Source: a virus
Reading direction: 5' to 3' (one strand)
Virus record (IMG/VR): IMGVR_UViG_3300017765_000001
Coordinates: 46,338 to 110,337 of that record
Length of the DNA: 64,000 nucleotides
Below are positions 10,140-49,356 of this stretch, piece after piece (the stretch's first letter is position 1; every line of letters starts with the position of its first letter). The notes under the pieces were generated by a model that ran no database searches, was not told where the DNA came from, and saw only the letters and a list, made by a program, of their open reading frames with translations. A program made the translations under genes and the position numbers.

Positions 10140-10176
10140 ATTATAGATAAAAAAAGAGGACCAGTCAAGGTCCTCT
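10140..10176 (-). terminator. Intrinsic terminator fused with sigma70 promoter
   Basis: AGAGGAC-CTTGACTG-GTCCTCT plus T-tract; TTGACT(10163-10168)-N17-TATAAT(10140-10145). Confidence 0.75.
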
Positions 10177-10443: not shown

Positions 10444-10608
10444 TCATTTGGTATAGGTACGACCACGATAGCAGAAGGTGCCATGAGGCTCCTGTCCTGC
10501 CTTACGAACTTCACACTTTACACCACGATATGCAGTGTGAGTGATTCGTGCGTCATGCAGAGCTGCTGCCTTGTTAATTTGCTTCTTAATGATTGTAAGT
10601 GTGTTCAT
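10444..10608 (-). CDS. DUF4278-family small basic protein
   Basis: MNTLTIIKKQINKAAALHDARITHTAYRGV...FCYRGRTYTK with two YRG motifs; AGGAG SD; start moved to 10608. Confidence 0.75.
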   Translation of the reverse strand: MNTLTIIKKQINKAAALHDARITHTAYRGVKCEVRKAGQEPHGTFCYRGRTYTK

Positions 10609-10641
10609 TGATTTCTCCTGAAAGTAAGGGGTTTTTAATCC

Positions 10642-10884
10642 CGTTCCTTCAGTCGTTTGCGTCCCATCTACACTCAGAAGTATAGTCCTGAATGGTTTCA
10701 ATTAATTCTAACTTCCACTCTGCTTTCAGATTCTCATGCTTTTGGATCCTAAGGACCATAGCATCAGCATCTGAACATGTAATGGTTGATGAAAGAAAAA
10801 ATTCAAACATGGGATGAACGCTCCGTTCCGCGACTTACTTGCGTCCTGAGACTGAATTTTACTTCTGACTCTTGGATGAACGAT
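10642..10884 (-). ncRNA. Glutamine riboswitch-like (glnA/Downstream-peptide type) double-aptamer leader
   Basis: Two copies of CGUUCAUCC...GGACGCAA...GGAACG, with AGUA and GAAG E-loop-like elements; upstream of DUF4278 genes. Confidence 0.7.
10649..10810 (-). CDS. 53-aa ORF nested in the riboswitch-like RNA
   Basis: MFEFFLSSTITCSDADAMVLRIQKHENLKAEWKLELIETIQDYTSECRWDAND; GGAG upstream. Confidence 0.6.
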   Translation of the reverse strand: MFEFFLSSTITCSDADAMVLRIQKHENLKAEWKLELIETIQDYTSECRWDAND

Positions 10885-10890
10885 GGTCTT

Positions 10891-10919
10891 ATTATAGACC
10901 TCATGACTTATATAGTCAA
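10891..10919 (-). promoter_or_regulatory. Sigma70-type promoter of the riboswitch operon
   Basis: TTGACT-N17-TATAAT; predicted +1 near 10884, the first base of the aptamer. Confidence 0.8.
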
Positions 10920-10926
10920 GTTTGTA

Positions 10927-10942
10927 TGTAACTTGTGATACA
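10927..10942. promoter_or_regulatory. Putative NtcA box
   Basis: TGTA-ACTTGTGA-TACA matches TGTA-N8-TACA, 7 nt upstream of the -35. Confidence 0.5.
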
Positions 10943-17469: not shown

Positions 17470-17504
17470 TTGAAAAAGGGTTAAGTAAAAGTGCGGGGAA
17501 CACT

Positions 17505-17600
17505 AGGAAAAATATTCCAACTCTACCCTCCAGAGTTGGTATGAGAGACGTTTTTTACTTCCCTAGAGGTCTCGGTTTAAGGGGAAGAGTAAAAAGGTGA
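17505..17600 (-). ncRNA. PhotoRC-II-like structured psbA leader (boundaries approximate)
   Basis: TTCCC/GGGAA stem with GAGAC in its loop complementary to downstream GTCTC (pseudoknot), then CCAACTCT/AGAGTTGG hairpin; directly 5' of phage psbA. Confidence 0.6.
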
Positions 17601-45618: not shown

Positions 45619-46667
45619 TTCTTATTGTCAATTTGCTGTTTAATCCATGTATAAGTTTTTCTGATTCCTTCTTCAAGAGATTGAGAATAATCCCATCCAA
45701 GATTCTCTCTAATCAGATCATTATTAGAGTTTCTACCTCTGACACCAGTAGGTGCATCAAGTTTGTACAATTTCTTGACTACCTTACCTGATACTTTAGC
45801 AGCAGTATCAACCAATTCATTGATTGAAACCATCTCTTCTGATCCAATATTGACTGGACCCATGAAGTCAGAATCCATCAGCCTTCTAGTTGCTTCAATG
45901 CATTCATCAATGAACAGGAAGGAACGAGTCTGTAAGCCATCTCCCCACACCTCGATGCCTCCACCTGTCTCAGGGAGGTAAGCGACTTTACGGCAGATTG
46001 CAGCTGGCGCTTTCTCTCTTCCTCCCTCCCAGGTTCCTTCTGGACCGAAGATATTGTGATACCTAGCAATACGAACAGGAATAGAATGATTACGGTTGTA
46101 AGCCAAGTAAAGTCTTTCGCTAAAGAGTTTTTCCCATCCATATTCTGAGTCTGGGTTTGCTGGGTATGCTGATTCTTCACGACAGTCTGGATTGTTGGGG
46201 TCAAGTTGATTGTGTTCTGGATACATGCAGGCAGATCCAGAATAGAAAATCTTAGTGGTATTTGTTACTGTATAGTCATTAAACTCTTTTTGTGCTTCAA
46301 GCACATTAAGATTGATGCTGACAGAGTTGTGCATGATATTGGCATCATTCTCACCAGTGAATACAAATCCTGCACCACCCATATCTGCAGCAAACTGATA
46401 GATCTCATCAAAACATTGATGATACTGTTGAGGGACATCATAATAAAAATTTCCCTGATATCCCTTAAATCTGATGACCTTATTCACAAAAGTTGGATCA
46501 CGTAGATCACCATGAACAAATTCATGTGCCTCTGATTTACCAAACTCAGGGCTCTTCAAATCTACTCCACGCACCCAATATCCCTCAGCACGCAGACGTT
46601 TTACCATATGACTACCAATAAAACCACCTGCACCTAAGACAAGTGCAGTCTTTGTGTATTCAGACAT
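45615..46667 (-). CDS. GDP-mannose 3,5-epimerase-like SDR (WcaG family)
   Basis: GAGGFIG, AADMGGAG, SACMYP, YGWEK, GGREKAPAAICRK, WGDGLQTRSF, GVRGRNS. Confidence 0.9.
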   Translation of the reverse strand: MSEYTKTALVLGAGGFIGSHMVKRLRAEGYWVRGVDLKSPEFGKSEAHEFVHGDLRDPTFVNKVIRFKGYQGNFYYDVPQQYHQCFDEIYQFAADMGGAGFVFTGENDANIMHNSVSINLNVLEAQKEFNDYTVTNTTKIFYSGSACMYPEHNQLDPNNPDCREESAYPANPDSEYGWEKLFSERLYLAYNRNHSIPVRIARYHNIFGPEGTWEGGREKAPAAICRKVAYLPETGGGIEVWGDGLQTRSFLFIDECIEATRRLMDSDFMGPVNIGSEEMVSINELVDTAAKVSGKVVKKLYKLDAPTGVRGRNSNNDLIRENLGWDYSQSLEEGIRKTYTWIKQQIDNKK

Positions 46668-47322: not shown

Positions 47323-47395
47323 TAGGGGTTGTGAGGATCGAACTCACCTTAGGCAAATTATGAGTTTGCTGCATTCACCAGATTGCTAAACCCCC
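47323..47395 (-). tRNA. tRNA with CAT anticodon (Met, or Ile2 if lysidinylated)
   Basis: Cloverleaf; GCAAA-CT-CAT-AA-TTTGC; GTTCGATCC T-arm. Confidence 0.88.
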
Positions 47396-47399
47396 AAGG

Positions 47400-47471
47400 T
47401 AGGACTGCTGGGACTTGAACCCAGATCACTCCGTTATAAGCAGAGGGCCTTTACCTTTAGGCGACAGTCCC
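47400..47471 (-). tRNA. tRNA-Ile(TAT)
   Basis: CTCTG-CT-TAT-AA-CGGAG; GTTCAAGTC; 5' end overlaps the talC 3' end. Confidence 0.85.
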
Positions 47472-48110
47472 TTGTACCTGCTTCCAATCATTCTCAAAGA
47501 TTTCCATTCCTTTATCAGTAAGGATATGATCATACATTTGCTCAAACACTTTTGGTGGCATAGTGCAAATGTGAGCACCATTATAGTATGATCTTACAAC
47601 TCTTTGAACATTTCTGATTGAAGCAGATAGGACTTGAGTTTCAATTCCTTGAACTCTATAGAGGTCTGATATAGATCTAACGACCTCCAGTCCTGCTACT
47701 GATTGATCATCCAGTCTACCCACAAAAGGAGAGACATAAGTTGCTCCTGCCTTTGCTGCCAGAATTGCTTGTGCTGCACAGAAAACAAGTGTAACATTGG
47801 TCTTGATACCTCTGTCTGCCAGATTTTTACATGCCAAGAGACCATCTCTCGTGCATGGGACTTTAATTGTTGAGCAATATCCAAACTTGTCATCAAGTCT
47901 GATGCCTTCATCAGTCATCTCTTGTGCATCACCCATGACTTCCATGCTGATATCTTCAATTCCTATCTCATCTATCTCTGCATAGACATCTTGAGGATCT
48001 CTACCACTCTTCCTAATCAGTGTGGGGTTTGTTGTCACACCATCAATCAATCCAGTCTGGAAATACTTTCTGATGACTTCTGTGTCTGCTGTATCAAGAA
48101 AAATTTTCAT
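47457..48110 (-). CDS. talC: Transaldolase (TalC/FSA type)
   Basis: IFLDTAD, GVTTNPTL, IKVP, NVTLVF, YVSPFVGRLDD, ASIR. Confidence 0.96.
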   Translation of the reverse strand: MKIFLDTADTEVIRKYFQTGLIDGVTTNPTLIRKSGRDPQDVYAEIDEIGIEDISMEVMGDAQEMTDEGIRLDDKFGYCSTIKVPCTRDGLLACKNLADRGIKTNVTLVFCAAQAILAAKAGATYVSPFVGRLDDQSVAGLEVVRSISDLYRVQGIETQVLSASIRNVQRVVRSYYNGAHICTMPPKVFEQMYDHILTDKGMEIFENDWKQVQGTVA

Positions 48111-48280
48111 GTTCCTTCGTTATTGTTATCTCTGTACATTTTAAGTATTTCATCATCAGCAGGCATCATGACTGCTGCATGTCCATCATCATTCACTATG
48201 CCAAGGTGTTCACCTTTTTCAACTCTCTCCATTAATTCATCCCATTTATCCTGAAATTCTTTGACTGTGAAAATTTCCAT
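48107..48280 (-). CDS. 57-aa Phd/YefM antitoxin-like protein
   Basis: MEIFTVKEFQDKWDELMERVEKGEHLGIVNDDGHAAVMMPADD; not in the ORF track. Confidence 0.6.
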   Translation of the reverse strand: MEIFTVKEFQDKWDELMERVEKGEHLGIVNDDGHAAVMMPADDEILKMYRDNNNEGT

Positions 48281-48307
48281 TGCACATAGGTTTTGATTAT
48301 ATAGGCA

Positions 48308-48381
48308 TCGAGGTGACAGGATTCGAACCTGCGACCCCTGCTTCCCAAAAGCAGTGCTCTACCAAACTGAGCTACACCTCG
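48308..48381 (-). tRNA. tRNA-Pro(TGG)
   Basis: CTGCT-TT-TGG-GA-AGCAG; GTTCGAATC. Confidence 0.93.
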
Positions 48382-48386
48382 ATGAG

Positions 48387-48473
48387 CGGAGAGGGTGGGA
48401 TTCGAACCCACGTTGCCCTTGCAGACAAGCTGGTTTTCAAGACCAGAGCCATAAACCACTCGACCACCTCTCC
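48387..48473 (-). tRNA. tRNA-Ser(TGA)
   Basis: CTGGT-CT-TGA-AA-ACCAG; long variable arm; G73. Confidence 0.93.
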
Positions 48474-48722
48474 TTATCTCTCTTCAAAGTCAAGTCTTCT
48501 GACTTTCCTTTGACGTCTTGCCTCCTGAAAGGCAAGGTCTTCATTTGATAGAACTCCTTTTCTTTTTTTAGGATTGTTAGATTTTACCATAACAATCTTA
48601 CTTAGGTCAACTGCAGTCACCTTATCATCAACCACTGTCATCATATTGGGACATCCACAGGATTGAGATTTGGTGGAGCTCGTGATTTCTTTTCTGCATA
48701 CTTTACATCTTACTGTAATCAT
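48474..48722 (-). CDS. Cys-rich (Zn-ribbon-like) hypothetical protein
   Basis: CKVC...CGCPN; RRQRKVRRLDFEER. Confidence 0.7.
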   Translation of the reverse strand: MITVRCKVCRKEITSSTKSQSCGCPNMMTVVDDKVTAVDLSKIVMVKSNNPKKRKGVLSNEDLAFQEARRQRKVRRLDFEER

Positions 48723-48742
48723 TGGTTTAGTTGGATACTACA

Positions 48743-48814
48743 TGGGAGATACAAGGATCGAACTTGTGACATCCTCGGTGTAAACGAGATGCTCTACCGC
48801 TGAGCTAATCTCCC
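48743..48814 (-). tRNA. tRNA-Val(TAC)
   Basis: TCTCG-TT-TAC-AC-CGAGG; GTTCGATCC. Confidence 0.93.
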
Positions 48815-48817
48815 ATA

Positions 48818-48890
48818 CTCCTCCACCTGGACTCGAACCAGGGACAAGGTGATTAACAGTCACCTGCTCTACCAACTGAGCTATAGAGGA
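48818..48890 (-). tRNA. tRNA-Asn(GTT)
   Basis: GGTGA-CT-GTT-AA-TCACC; GTTCGAGTC. Confidence 0.93.
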
Positions 48891-49097
48891 TTATTCTAAG
48901 ACACTAGTTTCTTGTTTCTTCAATCTAAAATACATCTTATAGTATTTCTTTTTGATTCCATCAAGAGTTTCCTTATCATCACCAAACCCCATCCAATTAC
49001 AGAGTTGTGCTGATCCTTCCAATTCACTAATCAGTCTCAATATATTGACTGACTGAATAGGAAGACCTCCTGGTTGATAATCTTCAATTGGGTTCAT
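48891..49097 (-). CDS. Hypothetical protein
   Basis: GGLPIQSVNILRLISELEGS...KKKYYKMYF; start moved out of tRNA-Gly. Confidence 0.65.
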   Translation of the reverse strand: MNPIEDYQPGGLPIQSVNILRLISELEGSAQLCNWMGFGDDKETLDGIKKKYYKMYFRLKKQETSVLE

Positions 49098-49115
49098 AAT
49101 ACTCCAGTAGGAGGA

Positions 49116-49187
49116 AGCGAGTAAGGGGACTTGAACCCCTGACATTCAGCTTGGAAGGCTGACGTTCTACCACTGAACTACACTCGC
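49116..49187 (-). tRNA. tRNA-Gly(TCC)
   Basis: TCAGC-CT-TCC-AA-GCTGA; U73. Confidence 0.92.
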
Positions 49188-49206
49188 ATTGTGGGAATAA
49201 ATCCCA

Positions 49207-49278
49207 AGCCAGATAACAGATTTGAACTGATGACCTTTGCTTTACAAAAGCACTGCTCTACCACTGAGCTAATCTGGC
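49207..49278 (-). tRNA. tRNA-Thr(TGT)
   Basis: TGCT-TT-TGT-AA-AGCA; GTTCAAATC. Confidence 0.88.
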
Positions 49279-49282
49279 AAGG

Positions 49283-49356
49283 CGACTCAAGTAGGATTCG
49301 AACCTACGACCGACTGCTTAGAAGGCAGTTGCTCTGTCCAGCTGAGCTATTGAGTC
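49283..49356 (-). tRNA. tRNA-Arg(TCT)
   Basis: ACTGC-CT-TCT-AA-GCAGT; GTTCGAATC. Confidence 0.93.

Follow-up and report, generated by a model that had tools for sequence, protein, structure and literature searches.

The window analyzed here is a 64,000-nucleotide (nt) stretch of DNA (positions 46,338 to 110,337 of IMG/VR virus record IMGVR_UViG_3300017765_000001, a 110-kb virus fragment) from a T4-like cyanomyovirus, and it encodes a ThyX-like open reading frame (ORF). On its minus strand, between a thioredoxin-like gene (phrog_22) and four very small genes, lies a leader that combines two cores of the glutamine (glnA) riboswitch aptamer with a 53-codon ORF; a 54-amino-acid (aa) DUF4278-like gene follows downstream. 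An earlier note on this stretch had proposed that helix P3 of an outer glnA-type aptamer surrounds a second core, which is circularly permuted. This arrangement is supported by covariation of helices P3, P2, and P2', by the alignment to the Rfam model, by RNAalifold, and by folding energy. Primes denote helices of the inner core throughout.

Read 5' to 3' on the minus strand from position 10884, the element consists of AU-CGUUC-A, a 33-nt hairpin (UCC...GGA), CGCAAGUA, AGUCG, CG, GAACG, GAG, and CGUUC-A, followed by UCCCAUG...ORF...AUGGGA, CGCAAA, CGACU, GAAG, and GAACG (Table 1). We re-read every motif position listed in the earlier note from the sequence, and each one was correct. The 5' half is referred to as unit A and the 3' half as unit B. 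As the note had also read from the sequence, neither unit has a P3 of its own. The two halves of the E-loop (AAGUA and GAAG) are split between the units.

Table 1. Features of the double-aptamer locus and of the sequences flanking it, listed in the direction of transcription (window coordinates).
Feature	Coordinates	Strand	Remarks
NtcA-like box, GTA-N8-TAC	10928-10941	minus	Upstream of promoter; putative, read from sequence
Sigma-70-type promoter, TTGACT-17-TATAAT	10891-10919	minus	11/12 consensus matches
Outer P1 5' strand, CGUUC	10878-10882	minus	Pairs with 10642-10646, probability 0.88-0.93; no variation among 45 compact relatives
Outer-core (unit A) P2 hairpin, UCC...GGA	10844-10876	minus	Closes imperfect 27-nt insert
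Outer-core strand joining P2 and P3 (J2/3), CGCAAGUA	10836-10843	minus	CGCA ligand-pocket strand and AAGUA E-loop half
Shared P3 5' strand, AGUCG	10831-10835	minus	Pairs with 10651-10655
CG linker	10829-10830	minus	
Inner P1' hairpin, GAACG-GAG-CGUUC	10816-10828	minus	Pair probability 0.71-0.81; predicted by RNAalifold
P1' sub-elements	GAACG 10828-10824; GAG 10823-10821; CGUUC 10820-10816	minus	
Inner P2' 5' strand, UCCCAU	10809-10814	minus	Pairs with 10662-10667, probability 0.79-0.97
Nested 53-codon ORF, phrog_504	10649-10810	minus	AUG 10810-10808, UGA 10651-10649
Inner P2' 3' strand, AUGGGA	10662-10667	minus	Inside last codons of ORF
Inner-core J2/3, CGCAAA	10656-10661	minus	Has CGCA, without AAGUA E-loop half
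Shared P3 3' strand, CGACU	10651-10655	minus	Final U opens UGA stop of ORF
GAAG (E-loop half, 10650-10647) and outer P1 3' strand GAACG (10646-10642)	10642-10650	minus	
Shine-Dalgarno (SD) sequence AGGAG (10619-10615) and 54-aa DUF4278-like gene	10444-10619	minus	AUG at 10608
31-aa hydrophobic peptide	10436-10341	minus	
51-aa phrog_6192 protein	10330-10175	minus	
Terminator-like hairpin	10176-10155	minus	AGAGGACC-TTGACT-GGTCCTCT, then T-run

The outer core carries the P1 of the Glutamine-I family (Rfam RF01739), with CGUUC at 10882-10878 pairing with GAACG at 10646-10642, and also its P2, a hairpin right after CGUUCA that is followed by CGNAAGUA. Its J2/3 agrees with the Rfam Glutamine consensus CGGAAGUA, and cmscan aligned UCC[27]GGA-CGCAAGUA to P2 and the junction of the Glutamine model. 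Between AAGUA and GAAG there is a covarying helix, but it is long-range and encloses ~175 nt with the second core and the ORF. The nucleotides that contact glutamine (the first C-G pair of P1, the C of GAACG, and the G of CGCA) are present in both cores, as judged by sequence. We describe the inner unit as a circular permutation because, in the nested connection, it keeps the order of helices and strands of the family while its open end lies at the P3 loop and its closed end at P1.

The earlier note predicted that covariance searches would catch fragments only, and indeed no Rfam match at the gathering threshold was obtained at this locus. ORF-bearing relatives likewise scored below threshold, at 22-29 bits, whereas compact relatives in which the second P2 is a plain hairpin passed the Glutamine model with 39.1-43.6 bits versus a gathering score of 35. 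In four full-length Rfam matches (39.6-43.6 bits), P3 was aligned as AGU...ACU around an insert of 38-48 nt, which is the inner core. A nested covariance model that we built from the compact forms failed on the window (16.5 bits, misaligned). Against Glutamine-II (Downstream-peptide, RF01704), the window scored 14 bits, with a gathering score of 33. The inner core resembles this family in having the CGCA strand without AAGUA; however, the window has neither the 3' hairpin loop with GGAACG nor the pseudoknot that this loop forms with CGUUC, and we rejected the Glutamine-II identity on these grounds and on the score.

We used blastn to search for relatives of the locus; the ORF together with the downstream gene was identified in 420 phage records, and the 43-nt junction between the units was identified in 424 phage records, once per record and nearly all from Synechococcus myoviruses. 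Two pattern scans of IMG/VR added 240 further loci, and ~250 loci were parsed by anchoring on invariant motifs. Comparison among these loci showed the double-aptamer layout to be widespread in cyanomyoviruses. Among 252 loci, 119 have an ORF in unit B only, as in the window, 50 have one in both units, 20 in unit A only, and 51 in neither; based on loop length, the unit-A P2 is long in 70 of the 252. The 45 unique compact double aptamers without an ORF were aligned (alignment A1). In the compact relatives, the CGCA of the inner junction is invariant and the A's that follow it are almost so.

The complementarity of AGUCG and CGACU, ~180 nt apart, to which the earlier note had drawn attention is present in the window, and the helix covaries across relatives. 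In each parsed locus of the window's class, the 5 nt that follow AAGUA can pair along their full length with the 5 nt that lead up to GAAG, which preserves all five P3 pairs; the compensatory forms are AGUCA/UGACU (five loci), AAUCG/CGAUU, AAUCU/AGAUU, and AGUCU/AGACU, and intermediates with G-U pairs also occur. In the second large class, P3 is 8 bp long (AGCCGACN/NGCCGACU) and its end pair alternates among U-A, G-C, and A-U, and in a third class P3 is GGACGG/CCGCCC. Within A1, five of the eight P3 pairs are altered on both sides, and all five pairs of the outer P2 equivalent in compact relatives covary. For the whole nested structure in A1, 94.1% of cells were paired, versus 82.8% in shuffled alignments (0 of 500 as high) and ≤52% when the partners were slid; the covariation score was 0.295, versus 0.098 in shuffles. 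RNAalifold, applied to A1, predicted outer P1, P2, the GAACG-NNN-CGUUC hairpin, and P2'.

P2', which brackets the ORF, was compared in 166 unique ORF-bearing loci, where it forms between the bases that follow CGUUCA and those just ahead of the CGNA junction strand. Over the first five pairs, 96.4% were paired, versus 77% in shuffles (0 of 1000 as high) and ≤57% when slid. The forms that we identified include UCCCAUG/CAUGGGA, UCCUAUG/CAUAGGA, CCCCA/UGGGG, UCUAUG/CAUAGA, and GAUUAUGG/CCAUAAUC; covariation of UCCCAU/AUGGGA across relatives, which the earlier note had named as a check, is supported. Within one homologous family of 53-codon ORFs, 37 sequences have U-A as the first P2' pair and 6 have C-G, and this double change turns WDAND into WGAND in the six homologous ORFs. 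Because the compensatory change alters the protein, P2' pairing was selected after the ORF was in place. The 3' strand of outer P1, GAACG, shows no variation across the 243 parsed loci, and the E-loop half preceding it is GAAG or AAAG; since GAACG is placed after the stop codon, its conservation is not due to coding. The note had also stated that the start codon is paired with the last codons of the ORF. The A and U of the AUG do belong to UCCCAU in the window; however, pairing of the full AUG is not general, as the contiguous P2' helix includes at least one AUG base in 140 of 164 loci but the complete AUG in only 45.

The nested ORF aligned over its full length to phrog_504 (E-value 1.4e-22). 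Among 44 unique 53-codon members, the proportion of synonymous differences (pS) was 0.68 and that of nonsynonymous differences (pN) was 0.32, with a ratio of nonsynonymous to synonymous rates (dN/dS) of ~0.31. Entropy by codon position was 1.06/0.52/1.41, with the third position the most variable, whereas 4-6 stops interrupt the other two frames. The last six codons are conserved to the same degree at each codon position (0.43/0.46/0.39); this pattern points to a constraint on the RNA, as expected if the RNA core, not the protein, acts there. Of 169 ORFs, 159 terminate at the UGA of GACUGAAGG, so that the aptamer core itself spells out the C-termini of the proteins, DAND or DAKAD. In the window, the ORF lies inside the inner P2 with its stop within the P3/GAAG junction, just as the earlier note placed it: the UGA overlaps the last U of CGACU and the GA of GAAG. 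Comparison among relatives showed that helices P2, P3, and P2' covary, that the ORF is coding, and that the register between the ORF and the core is fixed; based on these sequences, the nested ORF is a real protein-coding gene whose position is fixed relative to the aptamer core.

The nested protein has two invariant cysteines (C12 and C47), and AlphaFold2 predicted three short helices with a mean predicted local distance difference test score (pLDDT) of 83. It had no match in Pfam, only unnamed viral clusters in the ESM Atlas, and no Foldseek match in the PDB at an E-value ≤ 0.001; its homologues are all annotated as "hypothetical." A leader-peptide attenuator, in which the ORF is short and poorly conserved and its product is irrelevant, was considered and rejected on the basis of the phrog_504 family and its dN/dS. 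The label "attenuator" that the earlier note had attached to the leader is thus not supported in its classical sense, because the ORF is a conserved protein gene with two invariant cysteines.

The start region of the nested gene is made up wholly of aptamer strands (the P3 5' strand, CG, GAACG, GAG, CGUUC, A, and the P2' 5' strand). The GAG loop of P1' and the G preceding it form GGAG, located 10 nt before the nested AUG; in the window's class, the loop is GAG in 106 of 114 loci with the ORF versus 0 of 10 without it (Fisher p = 3e-10, uncorrected for relatedness). In 55 related loci, RNA stability relative to dinucleotide shuffles averaged z = -2.95 for the nested ORF and z = -2.19 for the downstream gene, and the interior of the window's ORF reached z = -3.9 as RNA (scored regions 10668-10807 and 10444-10605, minus strand). 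High stability is not specific to the nested ORF, because the downstream gene is stable too, and no conserved pairs inside the ORF were found in 43 ungapped family members.

The two alternative P1 pairings to which the earlier note pointed are both fully Watson-Crick, and the cores could accordingly be connected in two ways. If they were placed side by side, each CGUUC would pair with the GAACG of its own unit, and AGUCG/CGACU would be a kissing helix, a pseudoknot between the aptamers instead of a nested P3. Tandem glutamine aptamers a few nt apart are known from the literature (PMC2864571, PMC5066625, PMC9481103). Unit A is complete ~140 nt before the 3' strands of unit B, which gives its own P1 the chance to form earlier. 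In an H-type pseudoknot, loop 1 can cross a helix, and the 2-nt CG linker could span the 5-bp helix in the manner of such a loop. However, the E-loop needs AAGUA and GAAG at one junction, where they come together only if the first CGUUC pairs with the last GAACG, whereas in the side-by-side arrangement they fall in different units; this favors the nested connection. The units are also not each a complete aptamer, as independent tandem members would be, and unit A alone scores 18-29 bits.

The nested connection is further favored because the Rfam alignment, RNAalifold, and the free-energy minimum all give the nested pairing, though none of these scores pseudoknots. The minimum free energy of the 245-nt window RNA was -70.8 kcal/mol for an essentially nested fold, and the fold forced to be nested had -70.5 kcal/mol; pair probabilities in this RNA were ~0.9 for P1, ~0.8 for P1', and 0.8-0.97 for P2'. 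Scans for natural variants of the closing pair of inner P1' returned only unrelated chance matches. Given this evidence, we regard the side-by-side connection as unlikely to be the functional state.

Several observations weigh against a nested, glutamine-sensing structure. When the window was searched with Rfam Glutamine in E-value mode, the 5' unit alone was matched, at 18 bits with a gathering score of 35. Taken within the window alone, AGUCG/CGACU is a 5-nt complement 180 nt apart and is not above chance; because complements in a single sequence do no better than chance, the case for the long-range helices rests on the relatives. The thermodynamic model gave P3 pair probabilities of only 0.11-0.24, and it favored a shifted pairing between GCG and the CGC of the inner junction strand. 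In the 8-bp classes, P3 has one or two conserved positions that are not Watson-Crick; in the second large class, these are A-C or C-A mismatches at positions 3 and 6. None of the four P1 strands varies in relatives, and covariation therefore cannot separate nested from side-by-side P1 pairing. The inner core may be a scaffold only, since it lacks the E-loop. RNAalifold found no consensus structure in 180 tails running from the aptamer to the downstream start (a weak G-run/C-run hairpin was visible by eye only), and no conserved structure linking the aptamer to the downstream SD was found in these tails. Lastly, tandem glutamine aptamers a few nt apart have been described as non-cooperative in vitro, with their benefit unknown (PMC5066625). 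With these points taken into account, we consider it reasonably probable that the leader is one composite glutamine-sensing RNA, in which an outer type-1 aptamer and a permuted inner core share P3 and a gene occupies the P2' loop.

Two other explanations of the locus were weighed. The RNA could be a relic, in which the P2 loop of a formerly normal tandem riboswitch received an ORF, the RNA no longer folds or senses, and the motifs persist as the start and C-terminus of the ORF. The window does fall under the Rfam threshold, and the equal conservation of all three positions in the last six codons is explicable by protein constraint alone. However, compensatory changes postdate the ORF, including the one that alters the protein from WDAND to WGAND; P3 covaries in ORF-bearing loci; the noncoding GAACG after the stop and the E-loop half preceding it are conserved as described above; and the same cores are retained in forms free of the ORF. 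We judge a relic to be highly improbable. T4-type phages carry promoter-stem-loop elements (PeSL), and the cores could act mainly as DNA in a similar way, as conserved boundaries for recombination of small-gene cassettes. The existence of all four states of loop occupancy fits such a role, as does one protein family that occurs in the unit-A loop (L134, L237) and in the unit-B loop (L054). This explanation leaves the covariation of P3 and P2' and the match to a ligand-binding family unexplained, and a boundary role is compatible with a composite sensor as a side effect rather than a rival function; as the main role of the cores, it seems to us very unlikely.

The literature provides several points of comparison. 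In the type-1 aptamer, P3 points away from the ligand pocket, which consists of P1 and the CGCA strand; the pocket is identical in both glutamine classes, and two RNA pieces can assemble into a type-2 aptamer (PMC6698751). Glutamine riboswitches before DUF4278 genes are ON-type, with translation switched on upon glutamine binding, and marine Synechococcus hosts have been reported with the type-2 aptamer only (PMC6212724). Tandem glnA aptamers have been reported since 2010 (PMC2864571), and a later catalogue lists 157 doublets and 4 triplets of "pseudo-cooperative" glutamine units in a text without the words "nested," "circular," or "interlock" (PMC9481103). The Weinberg 2010 glnA alignment contains metagenome sequences of the kind described here; the units are aligned singly, the P3 columns are near-empty, and one sequence carries the ORF in its 3' flank. 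We found no published description of P3 sharing, of core permutation, or of a P2 that contains a gene, in literature whose coverage did not extend to Ames & Breaker 2011. The type-1 glutamine aptamer class and its tandems are known; in the element described here, the sequence comparison supports a shared helix, a permuted core, and an enclosed gene.

Like the RF01739 aptamer in the Synechocystis gifB/IF17 leader (PMC6212724), the window element has a CGUUC/GAACG P1, a P2 hairpin, CGNAAGUA and GAAG as E-loop halves, and a P3; it also lies in the 5' leader of a DUF4278-type gene in a nitrogen-control context, with an NtcA-type box near. Unlike that aptamer, its P3 is long-range and opens into a permuted core rather than a hairpin, one of its P2 loops holds a 53-codon gene, and it is found in a phage, with 18 bits versus a gathering score of 35. 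It shares two cores, a few nt apart in one leader, with the tandem glutamine aptamers described by the Breaker laboratory (cited in PMC5066625) and in PMC9481103; however, the papers covered here treat those as separate, "pseudo-cooperative" units, and we saw no mention in them of a shared P3, permuted core, or enclosed ORF. The tandem glycine riboswitch also has two homologous, associated amino-acid aptamers before one expression platform (PMC5066625). The glycine aptamers are complete and lie side by side with tertiary contacts, whereas the cores described here share a Watson-Crick helix and one of them encloses a gene. Group I introns such as that of phage T4 td, with I-TevI, carry ORFs in peripheral loops. 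They resemble the nested arrangement in that a functional folded RNA carries a protein gene in one of its loops and RNA structure sequesters the start region of the gene, but the window element is a leader of the ligand-sensing type, not self-splicing, and the end of its ORF is written by a conserved core.

If the leader is a composite sensor, the outer core, and probably both cores, would bind L-glutamine; we infer binding because both cores keep CGUUC, CGCA, and GAACG, which are the ligand contacts (PMC6698751). The ligand-stabilized fold would conceal the GGAG and AUG of the nested gene in P1' and P2', such that high glutamine would lower its translation, and by analogy with the ON-type gifB switch, high glutamine would raise translation of the DUF4278-like gene downstream. 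During initiation at 10810 or termination at the UGA (10651-10649), a ribosome would cover P1', P2', P3, and the 3' strand of outer P1, and translation of the nested gene would thereby unfold both sensors and reset them. With a footprint of ~30 nt and with both start and stop in aptamer strands, a ribosome on the ORF and folded aptamers would be mutually exclusive. The side-by-side P1 pairing would most likely be a co-transcriptional intermediate, because the 3' strands are made ~140 nt after unit A. We offer only tentatively, and on the whole doubt, the full opposite toggle, in which the glutamine-bound fold hides the phrog_504 start and frees the DUF4278-like start, and translation in the absence of glutamine erases and resets the sensor; a regulatory interpretation as such is plausible.

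A further pairing was observed at the start of the DUF4278-like gene, where AUGAAC (10603-10608, minus strand) is complementary to GUUCAU in both P1 5' strands (10876-10881 and 10814-10819). In the 287-nt leader RNA, the predicted free-energy minimum uses the GUUCAU/AUGAAC pairing, which makes it a possible candidate for an off state. The downstream gene begins with AUGAAC or AUGAAU in 87 of 215 related loci, and many relatives start otherwise. The 54-aa product matched phrog_545 (E-value 4e-29) and carries two YRG motifs; against Pfam DUF4278 (PF14105) it had an E-value of 0.018 and 15.8 bits, under the gathering score of 25.3 bits, and we therefore call it DUF4278-like only. Many relatives (L002, L003, L010, L012, L017, and others) have an optional module of ~40 nt between GAAGGAACG and the SD, consisting of AACGGAUCC, a hairpin with a covarying stem and a GNRA-like loop, and GAGAAGGUU; this module is absent from the window and had no Rfam match.

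Based on the spacing of the sigma-70-type promoter, transcription is predicted to start at ~10884, which is the first base of the aptamer. The NtcA-like box was present in 148 of 203 unique upstream regions of related loci, mostly centered 51-55 nt before CGUUCA, about one helical turn farther upstream than the canonical position of -41.5. In the window it lies just 5' of the -35 hexamer. Directly 5' of the aptamer, an inverted repeat (GGUCU-AUAAUA-AGACC, 10885-10900, minus strand) surrounds the -10 hexamer, and relatives keep an inverted repeat at the -10 position with a different sequence (e.g., GGGGUAUAAUACCC, GUGUUAUUAUUAACAC); it may represent a promoter stem-loop or, with a transcription start farther upstream, a 5' hairpin. 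At the other end of the gene cluster, the loop of the terminator-like hairpin (10140-10176, minus strand) contains the -35 hexamer of the next near-consensus promoter (10168-10140). Elsewhere on the minus strand of the window, we identified a PhotoRC-II RNA (78 bits, 17504-17600) and a cluster of nine tRNA genes (47323-49356).

In 51 parsed related loci, the unit-A P2 loop holds an ORF of 61-75 codons, and these ORFs likewise begin 4 nt past CGUUCA. The same small protein family with two cysteines was observed in the unit-A loop of L134 and L237 and in the unit-B loop of L054 (28/42 and 30/50 identity), which suggests that loop cassettes move between the two positions. The nested doublet was not found in 151 sampled cyanobacterial genomes, in which matches to our covariance model spanned only 58-66 nt, the length of a single aptamer; one further cyanobacterial genome gave a 76-nt match. 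A loose pattern scan of genome contigs returned almost only chance matches, plus one true tandem, L314, on a contig labeled as a metagenome-assembled genome (MAG) of the SAR86 cluster. This locus has two complete aptamers with their own P3 hairpins, 6 nt apart, and independent tandems therefore exist beside the fused form.

Riboswitch aptamers are usually seen as compact and noncoding, whereas in these phages a validated aptamer class surrounds a translated gene and shares one helix with a permuted copy of itself. Standard covariance models miss this layout; for cyanophage genomes, a survey from 2017 listed only two glutamine aptamers (PMC5473149), versus the 424 records with the inter-unit junction. 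The locus is also a natural example of aptamer circular permutation and helix sharing, which is useful for RNA design. If the proposed coupling is true, the leader would be a testable case of ribosome traffic against ligand sensing on one RNA, and if the toggle is true, it would be a riboswitch whose aptamer doubles as a coding region. Abundant ocean viruses would then read the nitrogen status of their hosts with a sensor of their own.

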